From: an uncultured Gemmatimonadales bacterium
GTDB lineage: Bacteria; Gemmatimonadota; Gemmatimonadetes; Gemmatimonadales; GWC2-71-9
Direction of reading: 5' to 3'
Assembly (NCBI GenBank): GCA_963798915.1
Contig: CAWCVB010000005.1
Location: 249,291 to 313,290, forward strand
DNA length: 64,000 bases
This document shows positions 45,141 to 54,835 of this stretch, piece by piece. The position numbers and the translations under genes were made by a program. Position 1 is the stretch's first letter. Each line of letters begins with the position of its first letter. The notes under the pieces are model-generated. The model had not been told where the DNA came from. It did not search any database and saw only the letters and a list, made by a program, of their open reading frames with translations.

Positions 45141-45414
45141 TGGGGAGCGGAAAGGTCGTCACCGCAAGCGCTTTGCGCAAGCGGCCGCGAGGGCGCCCTC
45201 GGCAGGTCGTCTGCGAAGCCGGCCCGGCCTCGATTCACGGCCTCCCCTTCTGCCGCATGTTTCGCTGGTGGACGCGCCGCGAGACATCACCGCATTCCCC
45301 GACCATGCCGCCAGTGATAATTGTCACGGCGCCACGCACGCCGAGGTCGCAGCTTACCCACTTGTCCGGTCACCACAGACCGGACGCCCGGGTCCCTTCT
45401 GCCCCTTGAGGTGC

Positions 45415-46224
45415 ATGATGCATATATCCTATTCACGACTCACCCTGGGACTTGTCGCCTCAGCGACCCTGGCGGCCTGCGCCGGCAACCCCTCGCCTGA
45501 AGACACGGCGGCCGCCGATACCACCGCTCCCAATGCCGGCGTCATGGCCGCTCCGTCCCCGGATACGACCAGGCGCGATACCACGATCATCACGCGCGAC
45601 ACCAGTCAGGCCATGCCTGCCGACTCCGCCATGGTGCCCCCAACAGATACGACCATGATGCCACCGGCGCGTGATACATCGGCCATGGTGTCGCCCACCG
45701 ACACAGCGGCAATGCCGCCACTCCAGGACACCACCGCCATGCCGGCGGACACCAGCATGGCCATGGCGGCCAGCGGTGCTGCCGTGACGGCCAAGATGGA
45801 AGGTGCCGCCGGGCGCGATCTGGGCACCCTCACGCTGACCGAGTCAGGGGGCGGCATTGCGGTATCCGGACAGCTCGTCGGCCTCCCTCCGGGAGAACAT
45901 GGATTCCATGTCCACGCCGTCGGCAAGTGCGAAGGTCCGTCCTTCGAATCCGCCGGAGCGCACTGGAATCCGACCAACAAGGCGCACGGCACCGATAACC
46001 CGGCCGGTCCCCACCTGGGCGACCTGCAGAACTTGACTGTGGGAGACGATAGCTCGGTGACTGTGCACGCCACCACGCCGAGTGGCACCCTGCATGGCGA
46101 AAACCCCCTGCTGGATGGCGATGGAGCAGCGATCGTGATTCACGCTGCGGCGGACGACTACCAGAGCAATCCCGCCGGAAACTCCGGCAAGCGGATCGCC
46201 TGCGGCGTGGTGCAGGGGAGCTGA
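45415..46224 (+). CDS. sodC: Cu/Zn superoxide dismutase lipoprotein with repetitive N-terminal linker
   Basis: LAAC lipobox; HGFHVH, GAHWNP, HG, PHLGDL, VIH, GNSGKRIACG. Confidence 0.93.
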   Translation: MMHISYSRLTLGLVASATLAACAGNPSPEDTAAADTTAPNAGVMAAPSPDTTRRDTTIITRDTSQAMPADSAMVPPTDTTMMPPARDTSAMVSPTDTAAMPPLQDTTAMPADTSMAMAASGAAVTAKMEGAAGRDLGTLTLTESGGGIAVSGQLVGLPPGEHGFHVHAVGKCEGPSFESAGAHWNPTNKAHGTDNPAGPHLGDLQNLTVGDDSSVTVHATTPSGTLHGENPLLDGDGAAIVIHAAADDYQSNPAGNSGKRIACGVVQGS

Positions 46225-46332
46225 ATCCGCTCTGCCAAGGGGCGCTCCGTCGGGTCTCCGGTGGCGCCTGCGGATCCGGTTTGGGCAGGACGACAGGGAC
46301 CAGATTGAATCTGATATGAGGGAGGTCATCCC

Positions 46333-46995
46333 ATGTTGCTGGATTATTGCCATCACAAGACCCAGGCAGCCTTCGCCGTCATGGCGGCACTGATCGCCGT
46401 CACTGGCTGCTCGAATAATCGGCAGGATGCCGCCGCCAGGGCGAGCGATAGCGTCAGCATGGCGGCACCGGCGGCCGATAGCACGACCGGCATGGCCGGC
46501 GTGCAGCTCAATGACGCCAAGATCGCCGACATTGCCGTCACCGCCAATTCGCTTGACAGCGCCGCTGGCGCGCTCGCGCTGAAGCAGGCCCAGAGCAAAG
46601 CTGTCAAGGACTTTGCCCAGACCATGATCCACGATCACTCGGCGGCGAACCGGAAGGCCGAGCAGCTGGCGACCGAGCTCAACCTGTCGCCGGAAGGCAA
46701 CAAAGTCAGCGATCAGCTCAAGGACGAGGCCGACAACGCAACCTCCGATCTCAAGGACCTGAAGGGCGCGGCGTTCGACCGGGCCTACATGGATCACGAA
46801 ATTGCCGTGCATACGTCGGTGCTGGCGTCGCTGGACAATACGCTCATTCCCGGCGCCGGGAACGCCGAGCTGAAGCAGTTCCTGAGTTCCATCCGGCCGA
46901 CCATCGCCGGGCACCTTGCCCGCGCCAAGTCAGTGAGGAAGGATCTCGGCGGGACCGACTCGCCCAGCGCTCGGGATTCAGCCCGGATGCCATAG
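46333..46995 (+). CDS. DUF4142 domain lipoprotein
   Basis: VTGC lipobox; VKDFAQTMIHDH, GAAFDRAYMDHEIAVH. Confidence 0.85.
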   Translation: MLLDYCHHKTQAAFAVMAALIAVTGCSNNRQDAAARASDSVSMAAPAADSTTGMAGVQLNDAKIADIAVTANSLDSAAGALALKQAQSKAVKDFAQTMIHDHSAANRKAEQLATELNLSPEGNKVSDQLKDEADNATSDLKDLKGAAFDRAYMDHEIAVHTSVLASLDNTLIPGAGNAELKQFLSSIRPTIAGHLARAKSVRKDLGGTDSPSARDSARMP

Positions 46996-47055
46996 GCTTG
47001 TACCGGAGCCGCGCAGCGCCGAAGCGGTGCTGCGCGGTCGTGGCAACTGGTCGGC

Positions 47056-47084
47056 TTGACATTACATGTTATAACAGCTATCTT
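47056..47084 (+). promoter_or_regulatory. Sigma70 promoter with embedded palindromic operator; leaderless MarR gene
   Basis: TTGACA-17-TATCTT, 6 nt before ATG 47091; TGTTATAACA at 47067-47076. Confidence 0.8.
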
Positions 47085-47090
47085 CTGGGC

Positions 47091-47552
47091 ATGTCGCTTC
47101 AGGCCGAGATCAAGCAGACCCGCCCATTTCCCAGCCGCGCCGCCGAGGCGTTGTTGAGCATTCTGCGGACCGCGGCGGTGCTGGAACACGATCTCACCGA
47201 TGCGCTCCGGCCATTTGGCATCACGCCGACCCAGCACAACGTGCTCCGGATCCTGAGGGGTGCGGGTGCCGATGGACTGTGCGGCCGGGAGATTGCGGAA
47301 CGGCTGGTGGCCAGCGTGCCCGACGTCCCAAGACTGCTGGAACGGCTGGATGCCATGAAGCTCATCGTGCGGGAGCGGGACCCGGAGGACCGACGTCACG
47401 TGACCGCGCGCGTTACGCCCGCGGGCCTGAAGCTGCTCACGCTGGTGACACCGGAACTCGAGGCGGTGGAGCGGCGGCGGGCCGGCCGGCTGAGCGACCG
47501 GACCCTGCGGGCACTGATCAGCAGCCTGGAGGCGATCCGCGAAGGCGGGTGA
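47091..47552 (+). CDS. MarR family transcriptional regulator
   Basis: GITPTQHNVLRILRG, VPDVPRLLERL, RERDPEDRR, VTPAG. Confidence 0.92.
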   Translation: MSLQAEIKQTRPFPSRAAEALLSILRTAAVLEHDLTDALRPFGITPTQHNVLRILRGAGADGLCGREIAERLVASVPDVPRLLERLDAMKLIVRERDPEDRRHVTARVTPAGLKLLTLVTPELEAVERRRAGRLSDRTLRALISSLEAIREGG

Positions 47553-47570
47553 CCGATTTTCCTGAAGTGA

Positions 47571-47585
47571 TACGTGTTATAACAG
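47571..47585. promoter_or_regulatory. Second copy of the putative MarR operator, upstream of doxX
   Basis: TACGTGTTATAACAG versus TACATGTTATAACAG at 47063-47077. Confidence 0.78.
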
Positions 47586-47619
47586 TGACAGTGATAACGT
47601 TTAACAGGGGCGGTGTGAT

Positions 47620-48177
47620 ATGTCGGTTTCTATTGCGGTAAGCGCGGGGTCACTGAGTGTCGGCCTCCTGCTGGCGCGTCTGGTGTTCGGGGGCCTGATG
47701 ACAGCCCATGGTTCCCAGAAGCTGCTGGGCTGGTTCGGCGGGCACGGTCTCGCGGGCACCGGCGCCTTCTTCGAGTCCCTGGGTTTTCGTCCCGGCCGGT
47801 TGTTTGCCACCGCGGCCGCCGTCTCCGAGATGGCCAGCGGTATCCTCCTGCTGCTCGGCCTGCTTGGGCCGGTCGGCCCCGCACTGATGGTTTCGGTGAT
47901 GATCGTCGCCGCCGGCAGCGTGCACTGGAAGAACGGGCTCTTTGCGATGTCGAATGGCATCGAGGTCCCATTGCTGTACGGCACCGGCGCGGTCGCGCTG
48001 GGACTGACCGGTCCGGGTGGGCTCTCAATTGACGCGCTGCTGGGACTGGGAGCGATGTGGACGCCGGTCGTCAGCGGCGGCGTGCTCGCGCTGGGCATCA
48101 TTGGTGGCTTTGCAAATCTGGCACTACGACACCGGCTCTCCCTCACGCCAGGTCGCCACGAGCCGCAGACCACGTGA
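47620..48177 (+). CDS. DoxX family membrane protein
   Basis: HGSQKLLGWFGG, VHWKNG, GIEVPL, GPGGLSID. Confidence 0.92.
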   Translation: MSVSIAVSAGSLSVGLLLARLVFGGLMTAHGSQKLLGWFGGHGLAGTGAFFESLGFRPGRLFATAAAVSEMASGILLLLGLLGPVGPALMVSVMIVAAGSVHWKNGLFAMSNGIEVPLLYGTGAVALGLTGPGGLSIDALLGLGAMWTPVVSGGVLALGIIGGFANLALRHRLSLTPGRHEPQTT

Positions 48178-48447
48178 GCCTGGGTGATCGCCGCTTCCTC
48201 TTGTGCGGAGACAGGAAGCGGCGACCCACCGGCGAAGGTGAGTGCATGAAAGCTACTGACTGACGGAGACCGCTGGATCGGGGGCAGGCGGCCCACTTGC
48301 GACTGCCTGCCCCCACGCACGTCCTGCCGCGTGACGGGATCGCCCTGGCCGGGCACGACGGCTCGTGCACGTCGGGAGTCGTGGCTATCATGCCAAGGTT
48401 GAAGACGCGCGTGCACATTTGACGTGATCCGGAAGGCGGAGATGAGC

Positions 48448-49812
48448 ATGGCGATCGTATCGGTGAACCCGGCCACAGGTGACGCCATTCAGGCCTATGA
48501 CGAGATGACTGCGGAGCAAGTCGCATCCGCGGTCGAGGATGCCAACGACGCCTGGGGCGACTGGCGCTCCGCGAGTTTCGGGGATCGAGCGGCGGTGATG
48601 CAGGGAACCGCCAGGATGCTCAGGGATCGCAAGGATGCCTTGGCTCGCCTCATGGCGCTGGAAATGGGCAAGCCACTGGCGCAAGGCGTCGCCGAGGCCG
48701 AGAAGTGCGCCTGGGTGTGCGAGTACTACGCGGAGCACGGCGAGGCCCAACTTGCGCCCGACCGGGTAGGCACCGAGGCCGCCAGGTCCTACGTTGCCTT
48801 CCAGCCGCTGGGCGTGGTGCTTGCCATCATGCCATGGAACTTTCCACTCTGGCAGGTCTACCGGTTTGCCGCCCCGGCGCTCATGGCCGGTAACGCCGGC
48901 GTGCTCAAGCACGCGTCGAACGTGCCGGGCTGCGCGCTCGCCATCGAGGAGATCTTCGTACGTGCCGGTGCGCCGCCGGGATTGTTCCGGACGCTGCTCA
49001 TCGGCAGCGATCAGGTGAAGAGCGTGATCGAACATCCACTGGTTCGCGCCGTGACGCTTACCGGGAGCACACCGGCGGGCCGGGCCGTCGCCAGCCAGGC
49101 GGGTGCAGTGCTCAAGAAGACAGTGCTCGAGCTTGGCGGCTCAGATCCCTACCTCGTGCTCGAGGATGCGGACCTTGACCTCGCGGCGGAGACCTGTGCT
49201 CGGTCCCGCCTCATCAACAGCGGCCAGAGCTGCATCGCGGCCAAGCGGTTCATTGTGGTCGGTGCGGTGCTGAAGGCCTTCACCGAGCGGTTGGTCTCGC
49301 GCATGGGCGCCCGGCGGGTAGGGAATCCTCTGGACGATGGAGTGGATGTCGGACCGCAGGCGCGCGAAGACCTGCGTGATGCGCTGCATCGGCAGGTGAC
49401 GTCCTCCGTCGAGCGTGGCGCCACGCTGGCGTTGGGCGGGCGCGTTCCCGACCAGCCCGGCGCGTTCTATCCGCCGACGGTGCTCACGGGGGTGACTCCC
49501 GGCATGCCGGCCTTCGATGAGGAGACGTTCGGTCCGGTGGCAGCCATCATCCCGGCGCAGGACGAGGCGGATGCAATCCGCCTGGCCAATCATTCGCACT
49601 TCGGGCTGGGGGCCGCGGTCTTCACCCGCGACCCGGACCGGGGCGAACGGATTGCGCTCAGGCTGGAAGCGGGCGCCACCTTTGTGAATGCACTGGTCGC
49701 CTCCGATCCGCGCCTCCCCTTTGGGGGGATCAAGCAGTCCGGCTATGGCCGCGAGTTGGGCAGCTATGGCATCCGCGAGTTTGTCAACGTGAAGACAGTC
49801 CAGGTGCATTGA
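48448..49812 (+). CDS. NAD(P)-dependent succinate-semialdehyde dehydrogenase-like aldehyde dehydrogenase
   Basis: IMPWNFP, LKHASNVP, LTGST, LELGGSDP, GQSCIAAKRF, EETFGPV, PFGGIKQSGYGREL. Confidence 0.93.
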   Translation: MAIVSVNPATGDAIQAYDEMTAEQVASAVEDANDAWGDWRSASFGDRAAVMQGTARMLRDRKDALARLMALEMGKPLAQGVAEAEKCAWVCEYYAEHGEAQLAPDRVGTEAARSYVAFQPLGVVLAIMPWNFPLWQVYRFAAPALMAGNAGVLKHASNVPGCALAIEEIFVRAGAPPGLFRTLLIGSDQVKSVIEHPLVRAVTLTGSTPAGRAVASQAGAVLKKTVLELGGSDPYLVLEDADLDLAAETCARSRLINSGQSCIAAKRFIVVGAVLKAFTERLVSRMGARRVGNPLDDGVDVGPQAREDLRDALHRQVTSSVERGATLALGGRVPDQPGAFYPPTVLTGVTPGMPAFDEETFGPVAAIIPAQDEADAIRLANHSHFGLGAAVFTRDPDRGERIALRLEAGATFVNALVASDPRLPFGGIKQSGYGRELGSYGIREFVNVKTVQVH

Positions 49813-49884
49813 CTCCACGGTGCGGCCGGCTCACCGCGTCGGCGGCGCGCCAGTCCGCAGGCGCTGCGGTGGCAGATTGGCAGG

Positions 49885-50391
49885 TCAGCCGCCCTTGCGT
49901 CTCACCTGCCAATGACCTGTGCTGGGTGCCGGCTGCCGTTCACCGTAGGTCGTAAAGGTGCCTTCGATCCGACCGCCGCTCAGGCGTCCCGTGAATACCG
50001 TTTCGAGCATGCAGTCGCAATCAGGCGCCTGGTAGGGCAGAAGTTCGCCCCGGACCTCATCACCCTGCAGTCGGACAAAACGGATCGTCAATACCGACGG
50101 CATGGGCGCCGCTTGCTGCGGCTGAATCTTGTCCTGCCCGGCAGGCCGCAAGGGCCGGTCGGAGTTGGACGGAATCATGAGCACATCACCAGTCGCCGTG
50201 TCGTGCCCCGCCTCGAGTGTAAAGACGATGCTGCCACTGCGGCCCGTCTGTGCGCTGCTGTAACTGCCTTCCCACCGTCCGGCGAGGGCGCCGAGGTCGG
50301 ACCCGGCTGCCTCCACCGGAACGGGGGATGGATTTGCCGCACAACCGAGCAACACGCTGGCCAGGAGTGCAAACGAAAGGTGACGCGACAT
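49885..50391 (-). CDS. Hypothetical lipoprotein
   Basis: LLGC lipobox; LAGRWEGSY; PDCDC; GGAG RBS. Confidence 0.7.
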   Translation of the reverse strand: MSRHLSFALLASVLLGCAANPSPVPVEAAGSDLGALAGRWEGSYSSAQTGRSGSIVFTLEAGHDTATGDVLMIPSNSDRPLRPAGQDKIQPQQAAPMPSVLTIRFVRLQGDEVRGELLPYQAPDCDCMLETVFTGRLSGGRIEGTFTTYGERQPAPSTGHWQVRRKGG

Positions 50392-50438
50392 GGCGGCTCC
50401 CTCCACGAGGTCAGCGACAGCCACTCGGCTGCGCCTGC

Positions 50439-50879
50439 TTACTTGATGGCAATCCGGCTGCGCGGCGATGGTTGCGCCTTGACGAGCCGGATTGTCAGCA
50501 TGCCGTCGCTGTAGCGGGCGTCTACCGTCTCCGGAGCGACGGGCTCCGGCAGCTGAACGCTCCGCACGAACCGGCCTTCTTCCCGCTCGCGCCAGAAGAA
50601 TTCCTCGTTTTCCTCCTGGCGGGCCAGCTCGCGGCGTCCCACCACCGTCAGCATCTGGCCATCCAGAGCCACATCAAGGTCATCCTTGGCCACGCCCGGC
50701 GCCTCGATGCGAACCACGAACTCCTTCTCGGTTTCGGAGAAGTCGAGCTTCGGTGACCACATCAGGCCGCCGTCCCGCGTGGGTGCCGGAAACGGGGTCA
50801 TGCGGAAGAAGCGGTCGAAGAGGCGCTCGAAATCATCCTTGAGCGCGACGGCAGTCTGGTTGGCCTGGGCGAGTTTCAT
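50439..50879 (-). CDS. Hsp20/alpha-crystallin small heat shock protein
   Basis: PKLDFSETEKEF, APGVAKDD, EREEGRFVRSVQLP, ARYSDGMLTI; GGAGG RBS. Confidence 0.93.
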   Translation of the reverse strand: MKLAQANQTAVALKDDFERLFDRFFRMTPFPAPTRDGGLMWSPKLDFSETEKEFVVRIEAPGVAKDDLDVALDGQMLTVVGRRELARQEENEEFFWREREEGRFVRSVQLPEPVAPETVDARYSDGMLTIRLVKAQPSPRSRIAIK

Positions 50880-51090
50880 GGCGGTCCTCCTTGCACTGAC
50901 GTGCATGAGAAAGGTGCACTCCAATGGTACCTGGGTGGCCATGAAGAGCGGCTGAAGACTTCGCGAAATTTTTCCAGGCCATCGTCGGAAAGCAGGAAGG
51001 TGACGATCCTCACAGTCAGCGGTGGGACGGTAGCCTACCCTGACAGGGCAAGGGCCAAACGGTTGGCCCGAAGGAGGAGGTCGAACAACA

Positions 51091-51564
51091 ATGAAGAGGC
51101 ATTCACATGAAGTGCGCTCGCTGCTCGCGGGGCTGAGCCTTGGTGCGATCGCGATGTATATCCTGGATCCATTGCGGGGCCCGGCCAGGCGTGCACGCGT
51201 GCGGGAGCGTGCCGGCAGCACGCTGCGGAGTGGGCGGCGCGAGTTTCGGCGGCGCGCCGAGGACCTGCGCAACCGCGCGAAGGGCGCGCTGGCGGAAGTG
51301 CGTGGGCGCCTGTCGGAGCATGGCGTGACCGACGAGCAGCTGGTCGCCCGGGTCCGCGCCGAACTCGGTCACCACGTGAGCCATGGCGGACAACTCGAGG
51401 TGAGTGCCCACGATGGAATCGTCACGTTGGGTGGACACGTGTCGGGCCGAGAGGTGCCCGATGTGCTGGCCATGGCGCGAAGGGTTCGCGGAGTCGAACA
51501 GGTTCGGGACGACCTGCAAGTTGCGGACTGGGACGTGGGTGGAAACGTGAAGATCGGCGGTTAG
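51091..51564 (+). CDS. BON domain protein
   Basis: N-terminal TM then MYILDP..G..RRA; TDEQLVARVRAELG, DGIVTLGG, VRGVEQV. Confidence 0.85.
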   Translation: MKRHSHEVRSLLAGLSLGAIAMYILDPLRGPARRARVRERAGSTLRSGRREFRRRAEDLRNRAKGALAEVRGRLSEHGVTDEQLVARVRAELGHHVSHGGQLEVSAHDGIVTLGGHVSGREVPDVLAMARRVRGVEQVRDDLQVADWDVGGNVKIGG

Positions 51565-51688: not shown

Positions 51689-52132
51689 TCAGGCGTGCCG
51701 GGCGGAGACCTCGGGCACAGGCGGGCCGTATGTTGCGCCCACCACGGCGCCGTAAACCAGGTGGCCAATCATGCTTCCCATGACGAGCATCCACTGGTTG
51801 GGGGCGTTCGCCGTGAAGAGCCCCATGCCCATCATGGGCATGACCGCGATCTGCGCCAGCAGGAATGGAAAGAGCCCATAGAGGGCGCCACGCATCCACG
51901 GTGCGCCGGGCAGCCGGGAGGCAAAGAGCGCTGCATAAATGATGGCGAACATGGTACCGATCATGAAATGCGCGAGCCACCCGACGGCGGTTGGCACGTT
52001 CATGAATCCGCTCAGCATGGCAGGGATATCCATCTTGATCCCCATAAGACCTGCCATCGTGGTCATCAGGGTCATCGCCGCAGTTCCGATGACACCCGCA
52101 ACAATGGCGCGGGAAAGATTAAACGACTTCAT
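51689..52132 (-). CDS. Met-rich 4-TM membrane protein of unknown function
   Basis: AGVIGTAAMT, GWLAHFMIG, MPMMGMGLF, GHLVYG; AGGAG RBS. Confidence 0.85.
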   Translation of the reverse strand: MKSFNLSRAIVAGVIGTAAMTLMTTMAGLMGIKMDIPAMLSGFMNVPTAVGWLAHFMIGTMFAIIYAALFASRLPGAPWMRGALYGLFPFLLAQIAVMPMMGMGLFTANAPNQWMLVMGSMIGHLVYGAVVGATYGPPVPEVSARHA

Positions 52133-52275
52133 GAATGTGCTCCTGGCAGGTGGTGTGTGGTGCCTGAAAAGCTGGCGGCGCCGGACGTGTCCGCATCGCG
52201 CCAGTGGGCGACGTGGGGTGAACCGGGCAATGCGGCCACGTTTACTCGCCCAGGGGTAGATGGCGCTCGCCTCCT

Positions 52276-52302
52276 AACCGGATGGCGGATGGATCAGTTC
52301 CC
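52276..52302 (-). promoter_or_regulatory. ECF-type promoter, copy 1
   Basis: - strand GGGAACT-gatccatccgcc-ATCCGGTT. Confidence 0.8.
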
Positions 52303-52397
52303 GTGACGGTAGCATCGCTCGTGCTCATTCTTGAGTTCGAGAAGGTCTGTCGTACCGTACTATTCGCTCGCAAGCGCATCGCGGTTCGGCGGGGTGA

Positions 52398-52649
52398 TCA
52401 TGCGCCCTCCCCGGCGGCGCCTTCCTGGGCCAGCAGCCGGGCGAACAACTGATGCCGCAGGGCAGGCGAGGCCTGCTCCCGCTCGCGCAGACGTCGCGTG
52501 TACTCGAAGTAGCGCGCTGGATTGTACCTGGGATAACACCGGCTGCAGATGGCAAGGTGCGTCTGCACCGACTTTGAGGTGGCAGCCGTCCAGTGAACAC
52601 GGGCTCGCCAGGCCTCGTCACACGTCACTCCACCAATGCGCATCATCAT
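52398..52649 (-). CDS. Zinc-binding anti-sigma factor (zf-HC2/ZAS), apparently with small deletions
   Basis: TCDEA...HLAICSRC (HxxxCxxC); ATGA-coupled to the sigma gene; no TM; expected LDG segment appears out of frame. Confidence 0.8.
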   Translation of the reverse strand: MMMRIGGVTCDEAWRARVHWTAATSKSVQTHLAICSRCYPRYNPARYFEYTRRLREREQASPALRHQLFARLLAQEGAAGEGA

Positions 52650-53350
52650 GGCTGTGTATCCTCGTGCACGTAACCGGATCGGACCGCAAAGTCCCGCAGC
52701 TGATCCTGCAACAGTCGCCGGGCCCGGAAGAGGCGGCTCTTGACCGTACCAATCGGAATGGTGAGTACTTCGGCAATCTCCTCGTAGCTCAGATCGCCCA
52801 CGTCGCTCAGTACGAGCACCTCGCGAAAATCGTCGGAAAGACCGTCGATTGCCTGGACTACCTCGTCGTCGATGAGATCGTCGAAGTCGTCCGGAGACGC
52901 GCCGGGCGCCGCGTTCGGAAGCGCGCTCGCGGCGGAGAGGTCTTCGACACGAGCGTCGAGATCCGATGCCGGCCGTTCCCGCTGGTTGCGAATCCGCTCC
53001 CGCTCGTGCAGATACGTGTTGCGGCAGATCGTGAAGAGCCACGACTTGCAATTGCTTCCCCGCTGAAACGTGTGCCAGAAGCGATGCGCCCGGAGAAAGG
53101 TGTCCTGGGTCAGGTCATCGGCCGCGTCCTGGTTCCCCTGGGCCAACCGGAGCGAGAAATGGTGGACGGCGTTGAGCCACGGAAGCGCCTCCTCGGCAAA
53201 GCCTTCCGCTGCAAGAGCTGGCTCGTCTCCTAGCGGCGCGATTGGCGTTTCGCGGGGACGTCCCGGCGCCACGTCCAGATGGCGCGGCCGCTTGGCCAGC
53301 ACCGCCCATGCTGTCTGGACGCGATCCCACAGTGCGTCTCTGCCACCCAT
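52646..53350 (-). CDS. ECF sigma-70 factor (SigR/SigH-like)
   Basis: ADDLTQDTFLRA, FQRGSNCKSWLFTICRN, LSYEEIAEVLTIPIGTVKSRLFRAR; start uncertain. Confidence 0.93.
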   Translation of the reverse strand: MGGRDALWDRVQTAWAVLAKRPRHLDVAPGRPRETPIAPLGDEPALAAEGFAEEALPWLNAVHHFSLRLAQGNQDAADDLTQDTFLRAHRFWHTFQRGSNCKSWLFTICRNTYLHERERIRNQRERPASDLDARVEDLSAASALPNAAPGASPDDFDDLIDDEVVQAIDGLSDDFREVLVLSDVGDLSYEEIAEVLTIPIGTVKSRLFRARRLLQDQLRDFAVRSGYVHEDTQP

Positions 53351-53410
53351 GTGCGCTGACCCTTTCGCATCGTGTCCCGCGTGGCCGCATGATTGAGGCA
53401 TTCCCGCCCG

Positions 53411-53437
53411 AACCGGATTCCGGTCTCGCAAGTTCCC
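53411..53437 (-). promoter_or_regulatory. ECF-type promoter, copy 2 (sigma autoregulation)
   Basis: - strand GGGAACT-tgcgagaccgga-ATCCGGTT. Confidence 0.8.
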
Positions 53438-53448
53438 AGACTCAACCA

Positions 53449-53475
53449 GGGAACTCGACCTCCGCACATCCGGTT
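53449..53475 (+). promoter_or_regulatory. ECF-type promoter, copy 3
   Basis: + strand GGGAACT-cgacctccgcac-ATCCGGTT. Confidence 0.8.
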
Positions 53476-53509
53476 GGCGTCATACACTTTTCCTCTTTGT
53501 GGAGATCGC

Positions 53510-54448
53510 ATGCGACGCCAGTGGATGGTACCCTCATTGCTCTGTGTCCTGCTTCCCTCTCTCCTGGCCGGGCAAGGGATGGCTCCGGCCGGTTCGATTC
53601 CCTATCAGGGCTATCTGAAGTCCCACAGCGACGTGTCCCGGCCGCTTGGCCTGCTGGGCGGACCAGTCGATGTGACCGTCAAGCAATCTTCCGGCGGCGT
53701 ATTCGTGGCACTGCCCGATCGCCGCGCGCTGGACGAGGCGGTGTTCGGGACGCCGGCCGCCCCCCGCGCATTCGCGGGTACGCCGGTCATGACCGGTCTG
53801 CCAGTGGCCATGCGGGACTCGGCCGACGCTCGCTTCACCACGGCGAAACCACTGACGCCGTTTGGTGACAAGAACATGGTGCTGGGCAACGGGACGCTTA
53901 CCCTCACCTTGCATGATGCAACGGCGACCGACGCGGCCAAGTCCGAAGACCGGGTCCAATTCGACGCCACCTGGAAGGACAAGGACGGCAACACCTATGA
54001 AGTGCGTTGTTGCCAGATGCTCGCGACTCACGGTCTGGAGTATCCCACGTTTGGTGGAGTGGCGACCAACACGCTGCTGCATGGGTCCACCCGAATCGGT
54101 ACACCGCTGATGCCAACGGAATTCACCTACGCGGCCTTCTGGGGGATGGGCGCGGTGCTGAAGAATGGCAAAGTGGTGGACCAGCCCCGGCTCATTCACG
54201 GGATGTTGACCGAGTACGTGCGCACCGAAGGATATGCGCTGGCTGCGGATAGCGCGGTCGGGCCTACCCGACTGCATTTCCACCTGATGGTGCCACCGAT
54301 GATGCCCGACATGGCGACGGGGAAATTCGCGATGAGCCCGGTGAAGACCGGTTTCTCGCTCCCCAACGGCATGGAGCTCCCGTTCTGGCACGTGATGTTC
54401 GAAAATCTTGCGGTGACGGGCCAGCGCGCCGGCACCAGCGGGCGGTGA
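53510..54448 (+). CDS. Secreted hypothetical protein, His/Met-rich C-terminal half
   Basis: GGAG RBS, signal peptide, strong coding pattern; no family recognised. Confidence 0.85.
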   Translation: MRRQWMVPSLLCVLLPSLLAGQGMAPAGSIPYQGYLKSHSDVSRPLGLLGGPVDVTVKQSSGGVFVALPDRRALDEAVFGTPAAPRAFAGTPVMTGLPVAMRDSADARFTTAKPLTPFGDKNMVLGNGTLTLTLHDATATDAAKSEDRVQFDATWKDKDGNTYEVRCCQMLATHGLEYPTFGGVATNTLLHGSTRIGTPLMPTEFTYAAFWGMGAVLKNGKVVDQPRLIHGMLTEYVRTEGYALAADSAVGPTRLHFHLMVPPMMPDMATGKFAMSPVKTGFSLPNGMELPFWHVMFENLAVTGQRAGTSGR

Positions 54449-54451
54449 CCG

Positions 54452-54835
54452 ATGCGGCTGCTTGCTCCGACTCTCGCGGGTCTGGTGCTTGCCGTCGGTG
54501 GCGTGCGGGATCAGTTGCGCTAGCGACGGGACGACGGTGGTATGGGCCGATACGGCAGGGTGGAACTGACCAACACCCTGACATACACGCCAGACACCGT
54601 GCGAATCGTTGCCGGTGGGACGGTGATGTGGAAGAACGGATCGCTGCTCGTTCACACGGTCACCGATGATTCGGGGAAGGCGACCGTGCCGGGTTCGGCC
54701 GGGTTGCCGTCCGGCGCCAGGCCTTCGATTCAGGGAACCTTGAGCCGGGAGGCACTCGACACATAAGATAGGGCGTTATTACTACTCTGATGCATGAAAG
54801 AGCAGGATGCGGGGCGTGTCATCGTGAGGCTGGAT
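54452..54835 (+). pseudogene. Cupredoxin/plastocyanin-like gene, multiply frameshifted
   Basis: Signal-like MRLLAPTLAGLVLA; YTPDTVRI..GGTVMWKN..VHTVT; FDSGNLEPG; remnants YYY..MHERAG-MRGV..IV across frames. Confidence 0.75.

Follow-up and report, generated by a model that had tools for sequence, protein, structure and literature searches.

A SigR/SigH-like sigma factor island of a Gemmatimonadales bacterium, with three identical promoter-like sites and a secreted protein of an undescribed family paired with a cupredoxin

We analysed a 64,000-nt stretch of DNA from an uncultured Gemmatimonadales bacterium (GenBank assembly GCA_963798915.1, contig CAWCVB010000005.1, positions 249,291 to 313,290 of the forward strand), referred to here as the window. 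At window positions 51689 to 54835 lies a compact gene island in which a SigR/SigH-like extracytoplasmic function (ECF) sigma factor and a soluble zinc anti-sigma factor are accompanied by three identical promoter-like sites, by the gene of a Met-rich membrane protein, and by a gene pair for a secreted protein and a type-1 cupredoxin. The features of the island, in window coordinates, are as follows.

51689-52132, minus strand: 147-aa Met-rich membrane protein, Pfam DUF6789/DUF2938 (DUF1440 below cut-off)
52133-52275, minus strand: leader of the membrane gene (143 nt); weak hairpin at z = -2.2, nothing in Rfam
52276-52302, minus strand: candidate promoter 1 (GGAAC-N18-GTT), 96 nt past the anti-sigma stop and directed toward the membrane gene
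52398-52649, minus strand: soluble RsrA-like zinc anti-sigma with C10, H31, C35 and C38, its start overlapping the sigma stop
52646-53350, minus strand: 234-aa SigH/SigR-like ECF sigma, Pfam Sigma70_r2 and r4_2
53411-53437, minus strand: candidate promoter 2, putatively autoregulatory, directed toward the sigma/anti-sigma operon
53449-53475, plus strand: candidate promoter 3, divergent from the adjacent promoter 2 and directed toward the secreted gene and the cupredoxin
53510-54448, plus strand: 312-aa secreted protein of an undescribed family, with a predicted beta-barrel-like fold and conserved H191, H230, M232, H258 and H294
54452-54835 (end approximate), plus strand: type-1 cupredoxin gene, interrupted in this assembly by a stop and frameshifts, its ligand loop unreadable

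The three sites are exact copies of GGGAACT-N12-ATCCGGTT, as a previous sequence-only reading of this DNA had claimed. No match was obtained in 100 dinucleotide shuffles, and in the whole assembly (3.3 Mb in 17 contigs, 84.8% complete) these were the only exact copies at the N12 spacing, with none at one mismatch and a single, coding-internal copy at two; a chance origin of the motif is ruled out by the shuffles together with its uniqueness in the genome. Since the 12-nt spacers are unrelated, with 2-4 of 12 bases in common, the sites represent two separately fixed boxes, and duplication was likewise rejected as their source. Measured from the 3' end of each site, the start codons of the membrane, sigma and secreted genes follow after 144, 61 and 35 nt, respectively. 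All three equal GGAAC-N18-GTT and match the SigH consensus GGAAY-N18/19-GTT, given with both spacings accepted in the available text of PMC5430705, which upholds the fit to SigR/SigH-type promoters that had been proposed. They also share an extended -10 element, ATCCG, that is absent at other sites, and agreement of three sites at six -10 positions has a chance of about 1e-5 under footprint frequencies. Run X1, which holds a near-identical strain, covers 53415-53565 without a difference, an interval that includes the whole of promoter 3 and lacks only four bases of promoter 2. The region yielded no Rfam match, sigma-70 promoter or terminator. A fourth ATCCGGTT box is present at 52672-52696 on the minus strand, inside the 3' end of the sigma gene, accompanied by a GGGAC box whose spacing is two bases too short; it is probably set by the protein sequence.

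The sigma factor consists of regions 2 and 4 only. Its best hit among 92 NCBIfam families was TIGR02947 (actinobacterial SigH) at 124.6 bits, below the 251.55 cut-off of what is a lineage-specific, actinobacterial equivalog model, and its best match in PDB was SigH of mycobacterial RNA polymerase structures (E 1.5e-27). The anti-sigma carries C10 and H31-xxx-C35-xx-C38, has no membrane segment and scored 14.8 bits with TIGR03988; its ortholog at locus L147 scored 43.8 bits with zf-HC2, above the cut-off, 58.2 of the 62.5 bits required by TIGR03988, and E 1.3e-7 with RsrA. With these ligands present and an RsrA-like ortholog, the earlier proposal of a SigR/SigH-type sigma with a soluble HxxxCxxC zinc anti-sigma stands, the anti-sigma being encoded in position +1. 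The pair thereby resembles SigR-RsrA of Streptomyces coelicolor, SigH-RshA of mycobacteria and corynebacteria, and group ECF12, all of them two-domain ECF sigmas whose anti-sigma, in position +1, is soluble and zinc-binding; the likeness extends to the N-terminal Cys plus HxxxCxxC of the anti-sigma, the GGAAY-N18-GTT promoter and the autoregulatory site. The available parts of PMC7826278 give for ECF12 a soluble zinc anti-sigma in +1 and GGAAT/GTT boxes, with no Gemmatimonadota among the taxa listed there. ECF270 and ECF271 are further groups with soluble zinc anti-sigmas (PMC8999054, in the portion available), for which those same parts of PMC7826278 report no GGAAY/GTT motif. Judged from its sequence, the window regulator probably works like SigR/SigH and probably belongs to ECF12. 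It differs from SigR and SigH, with their more than 100 targets, in having three putative local targets, an extended -10 and envelope outputs, as well as in its Gemmatimonadales host and in a sigma that scores below the actinobacterial equivalog cut-off. A metagenome scan with the window sigma returned one close locus of 32, which had no upstream DNA.

The motif recurs in related genomes. Homologs of the membrane gene are present in 58 of 401 genomes of the order (order-wide tallies, over 400 or 401 genomes, include one unpublished genome, G090). A GGAAY-N19-TT site lay within 300 nt upstream of 10 of the 29 best non-self membrane-gene loci, compared with a null mean of 0.43 and a maximum of 3 in 500, while other spacings gave 0-2 loci each; for this and the other footprint counts, kin are not independent and certainty is overstated. 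In a tree of 63 sigmas, from which duplicate and distant metagenome rows were excluded, the window sigma fell into a supported 12-row clade (99/90) holding most of the sigmas linked to module genes. The motif was carried by 7 of the 10 other clade members with upstream DNA, which, together with promoter 2 before the window's own operon, supports the autoregulation that had been suggested. A GGAAC-N18-GTT site was also found for 7 of the 23 sigmas of the order-wide clade. In genome G263 the sigma, anti-sigma and membrane genes follow one another as in the window, and each of the two corresponding positions has a site; at locus L005 the order is secreted gene, cupredoxin, sigma, anti-sigma, thioredoxin. 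Among Gemmatimonadota, 4 of 8 secreted-gene loci have a site in register just upstream. The wider footprint has the consensus CGGGAACY-N15-GN[GAC]TT and supplies a promoter consensus for the SigR-like sigmas of Gemmatimonadales. When 5 selected genomes were scanned, matches occurred in 4 of them (13, compared with 4 for the reversed control), many in the sigma island.

Within these related islands the motif precedes thioredoxin, AhpD-like, flavin disulfide reductase and YceI-like genes. The earlier statement that the outputs are not thioredoxins is therefore correct for the window but not for related genomes, where thioredoxin and AhpD-like genes add to the likeness to the SigH regulon. The flavin disulfide reductase scored 416.6 bits with the RclA model, below the cut-offs for RclA (740) and MerA (650); it is similar to the RclA/MerA-type hypothiocyanite reductases, of which the window module has none. 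With thioredoxin, AhpD and RclA-like genes among the contents of related modules, oxidant stress is a better fit than copper.

Searches of Pfam and NCBIfam gave no match for the secreted protein. We found 476 homologs, with 56-75% identity in the 120 matches listed (self excluded), and clustering at 50% identity left 317 representatives. Its 80 genome loci are spread over Rhodothermota (21), Bacteroidota (13), Pseudomonadota (13), Balneolota (9), Gemmatimonadota (8) and others, and six haloarchaeal plasmid records match it as well. Across 48 diverse homologs H191 was kept in 88%, H230 in 75%, M232 in 85%, H258 in 88% and H294 in 90%. The C167-C168 pair was ruled out as a family-wide ligand, being kept in 12% and 6% of diverse homologs. 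An AlphaFold2 model was beta-rich (pLDDT 83, pTM 0.80; ortholog model pLDDT 79). Foldseek searches with these two models gave no clear match (best E 0.084), and a VIA fold search with both returned generic barrels at Z 7.0 (rmsd 3.9, 119 aligned) and Z 6.3 (rmsd 4.2, 133 aligned). A PDB sequence search returned nothing below E 0.09, and the ESM Atlas unnamed clusters only. The literature search found no description of the family or of the window regulon, the family having no name to search by. Of the best 150 homologs, 39 long ones were chosen by length; these carry a cupredoxin domain in 20 cases, cytochrome c in 3, a DsbA-like domain in 2, a type IX secretion tail in 2 and a weak SodC match in 1, and 11 were uninformative. 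A distant branch of about 30% identity, present in 54 of 400 genomes (loci L085-L110, e.g. L087:1387-2463 and L096:961-1968), often has an N-terminal cupredoxin and stands divergent from a different, PRK12533-like ECF sigma with its anti-sigma. The most likely identity of the secreted protein is a periplasmic redox metalloenzyme not described before, from a family that appears new.

Of the 73 loci with room downstream of the secreted gene, 68 have a cupredoxin. Type-1 ligands were found in 62 of 63 detected cupredoxin orthologs, and the His, Cys, His and Met ligands were invariant in 44. Two of the four haloarchaeal records examined also have the cupredoxin beside the secreted-family gene, those of Haloferax mediterranei (HFX_RS18735 for the secreted family, HFX_RS18740 for the cupredoxin) and Halogeometricum borinquense (L209:5824-7498 and L210:5848-7535); the two other haloarchaea have longer secreted-family forms of about 465 aa. 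In the available part of PMC9240420, which describes an uncharacterised copper-binding protein on the plasmid of this H. mediterranei pair, the cupredoxin locus tag occurs once, and its partner gene is unnamed in the literature searched. For the L005 ortholog pair a complex was predicted with a score of 0.88, compared with 0.29 for the best control; runs agreed in 100% of contacts, and partner pLDDT was at least 94. The mark applied to this score is attained by 116 of 157 solved pairs and by 2 of 215 mismatched ones, figures that are only roughly valid for the custom alignments used. The predicted interface involves cupredoxin residues 28-31 and 83-88, which adjoin two of the copper ligands, H32 and H84, and on the other side the invariant G62, G63, Y236, R238 and Y242 of the secreted protein (window numbering), together with its E298. 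In blue-copper proteins the face beside these ligands is the electron-transfer face. The model thus supports binding of the secreted protein to the cupredoxin at its copper-site face.

Methylamine dehydrogenase and amicyanin form a comparable pair of a periplasmic enzyme and a blue-copper carrier. The present pair resembles them in its fixed enzyme-cupredoxin gene pairing, in the interchange with cytochrome c and in the predicted docking beside the copper ligands, but the secreted protein lacks sequence or clear fold likeness to solved enzymes, and no cofactor-biosynthesis genes lie alongside. The pairing of secreted protein and cupredoxin is older and wider than the window regulon. As a separate observation, genes resembling those of ergothioneine synthesis (EgtB, EgtD, EgtC-like) as well as MsrA and AhpD-like genes flank the pair in salt-loving hosts (L019, L042, L056, the Salinibacter-like L018, L033-L035 and L055).

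The membrane protein, with 405 homologs, has H55, H124, M20, M34, M39 and M101 invariant in 44 of them; H55 and H124 lie in hydrophobic stretches, and these two histidines could hold heme or metal. With 18 Met in 147 aa it agrees with the earlier description of the outputs as Met/His-rich envelope proteins, a description that suits the secreted protein less well, as that protein is only moderately rich (Met 5.4%, His 2.6%). A paralog of the membrane gene (contig C2:350829-353241) has no motif and adjoins cytochrome c and a 464-aa unknown exported protein, a context found again in 8 of 29 related loci.

Considering these results together, we favor, at somewhat better than even confidence, a module in which oxidant stress frees the sigma factor to switch on its own operon, the membrane gene and the gene pair for a periplasmic redox enzyme and its copper electron carrier. 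The SigR/SigH-like sigma would be held by the soluble zinc anti-sigma until, by analogy with RsrA and RshA, oxidation of the zinc thiolates releases it; the available text of PMC5430705 describes oxidation of RshA by hypochlorite and induction of the regulon. Freed sigma would read the three GGAAC-N18-GTT promoters, giving transcripts of the sigma operon, of the gene for the Met-rich membrane protein and of the secreted-protein and cupredoxin gene pair, and the secreted protein would swap single electrons with the blue-copper protein through a histidine-rich metal site. The module would represent an accessory oxidant-defence island of Gemmatimonadales with variable gene content, of which the window genome has a minimal version. 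The sites and their conservation, the linkage of the genes and the assignments to families are direct observations; the stimulus, the metal site and the catalysis in this scheme are what we infer, and the fold of the secreted protein and its complex with the cupredoxin come from predicted models. The switch itself is ordinary, of the known SigR/SigH type; the apparent novelty is the undescribed, probably enzymatic family.

Several points weigh against this oxidant-responsive module. The reading of the three sites as promoters is sequence-based. Nineteen of the 29 membrane-gene homologs have no site directly upstream, 8 of which adjoin cytochrome c or a larger unknown gene and so belong to a separate context. 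For the secreted gene across all phyla, the motif precedes 7 of 76 and is not enriched (null mean 3.1, maximum 8); the expected conservation of the motif before orthologs was thus borne out for the membrane gene and the sigmas but not, across phyla, for this gene. A sigma lies within the locus in only 11 of the 80 secreted-gene loci, and only 3 of 400 other genomes of the order have a close homolog of the gene. The claim that the secreted protein and the cupredoxin are outputs of the sigma is weakened by a pair that is usually without this sigma and by the broken cupredoxin. The complex was predicted for orthologs from custom alignments, and the histidine metal site is putative. Thiol/oxidant genes were present in 31 of the 80 secreted-gene loci and a heavy-metal-type P-type ATPase in 2, in a tally that names families from one representative per cluster, includes close kin and has no background rate. 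The second sigma pair and the scarcity of frameshifts elsewhere, both described below, count on the same side.

The second sigma, SigR-like and 49% identical to that of the window, lies with its own zinc anti-sigma on contig C10 (78073-79050) and has matches at E 1e-30 or better in 280 of 401 genomes. It has the same -35 recognition helix, G-T-V-K-S-R-L-F-R-A-R-R, and the site of this pair, GGGAACT...GGTT, is one base longer, equal to GGAAC-N19-GTT. Between this site and the start codon lie about six repeats of an 8-nt unit. Judging by the shared helix and the near-identical site, the C10 pair could read the three sites of the window, and the description of the regulon as self-contained holds in that the assembly has no further exact site but not in that cross-talk with this pair is possible. 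Taken further, the three promoters would be read mainly by the C10 sigma, or by both sigmas, as one arm of a wider thiol-stress regulon. SigH takes N18 or N19, according to the available text of PMC5430705; the N18 sites in the order-wide sigma clade point the same way, as do N19 sites at C5:134414, before a TrxB/ferredoxin-reductase-like gene, and at C2:184083, before an AhpD-like gene (names from reading the sequences), which are possible targets of the second sigma. Intergenic sites in the genome at spacings of 16, 17, 18, 19 and 20 numbered 16, 14, 28, 20 and 15, respectively, so that most such sites are background. A matrix of 34 footprint sites gave top genome matches that were mostly gene-internal and no further ATCCGGTT-box site, in gene calls that cover 72% of the genome, so that upstream sites were possibly missed. 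Against control by C10, the extended -10 is confined to the three window sites, at the low chance of agreement given above, and the local sigma is flanked by all three; the shared ATCCG suggests a preference of the local sigma. We regard a wider regulon of this kind as unlikely. Two SigR-like pairs in one genome make insulation by spacer length and extended -10 testable.

A copper-homeostasis module, in which the anti-sigma would sense copper and the Met/His proteins and cupredoxin would bind, buffer or deliver it with no catalysis, is slightly less likely still. It draws on the Met-rich membrane protein with its invariant His and Met, the H-x-M motifs of the secreted protein, the constant cupredoxin partner, the heavy-metal-type ATPase that neighbours the pair at loci L004 and L072, and a CusA-like system beside the G263 sigma. 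CorE and CorE2 (ECF238) offer a parallel, being ECF sigmas that adjoin Met/His-rich and cupredoxin genes; however, the window sigma lacks the Cys-rich C-terminal tail that the available text of PMC7826278 describes for these metal-sensing sigmas, and an anti-sigma is present. The replacement of the cupredoxin by cytochrome c in 3 fusions fits electron transfer and not copper handling, and the P-type ATPases are far outnumbered by thiol/oxidant genes in the tally above. The copper response suggested by the sequence-only reading thus finds little support.

The cupredoxin named in the sequence-only reading is not an intact open reading frame as assembled. In the window copy an in-frame TAG follows the signal peptide, the frame shifts near 54721, and there is no Cys-x-x-His-x4-Met ligand loop. 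The anti-sigma has short in-frame deletions relative to its orthologs and is without the L-W-E-Y-L-D-G-E-L helix. Contigs of X1, at a depth of about 3, have extra bases behind 54506, 54517, 54558 and 54721 and one substitution in about 255 nt; read by hand, these bases reopen the cupredoxin frame. X1 continues past 54753 with cupredoxin-like sequence and ends before the ligand loop. Runs X2 and X3 gave short unrelated pieces only, and the anti-sigma was found in no run. Because the differences are deletions with almost no substitutions, the breaks in both genes are probably sequence error. Frameshifts elsewhere in the assembly were found at 1 of 59 probed loci, and real decay is possible. A decaying module, with a cupredoxin pseudogene and a lost anti-sigma binding helix that would leave the sigma constitutive or the island vestigial, would account for two damaged genes among otherwise rare frameshifts, and the shallow X1 contigs may derive from another strain, but we consider it quite improbable, given damage that is nearly all short deletions, a frame that X1 reopens, and intact sigma, membrane and secreted genes with all three promoters. 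Elsewhere, at C5:328600-330200, a CusA/AcrB-like gene is split over several frames, a damaged or low-quality patch.

For the oxidant-responsive module, the closest small regulon in print is the SigF/NrsF-MrpX-YedY (MsrP) hypochlorite system of Azospira suillum, as described in the available part of PMC4436054; it too is a small regulon of an ECF sigma, with outputs that are Met-rich or periplasmic redox proteins. The window module differs in having no MsrP-like gene (Pfam, NCBIfam) or Met-rich peptide and in its RsrA-like anti-sigma. A bolder proposal, which we advance as speculative and would not expect to hold in full, is that the secreted protein represents a new periplasmic metalloenzyme class: a beta-barrel with a four-His, possibly copper, site that would destroy reactive chlorine, sulfur or oxygen species or repair oxidised envelope molecules, passing electrons via its dedicated blue-copper partner, with the two-histidine DUF6789 protein as the link to the membrane electron chain. 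If true, it would be a copper-based counterpart of MsrPQ whose range runs from Gemmatimonadota through salt-loving Bacteroidota relatives as far as haloarchaea, and which is here under a SigR-type switch. If the secreted protein is an enzyme at all, it would provide a new metal-site scaffold and a new route of envelope defence. The family extends from bacteria to archaea with no Pfam model or solved relative, and H. mediterranei is a cultured host. For two families of proteins that have no assigned function, the proposed regulation points to thiol or halogen oxidants as a first inducing condition that can be tested.

Next to the island, window positions 45268-51564 are without the motif and contain genes for a Cu/Zn superoxide dismutase, DUF4142, MarR, DoxX, an aldehyde dehydrogenase-like protein, Hsp20 and a BON protein. 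On another contig (C6:216953-217203), a tandem repeat has three identical 30-nt stretches 125 nt apart.

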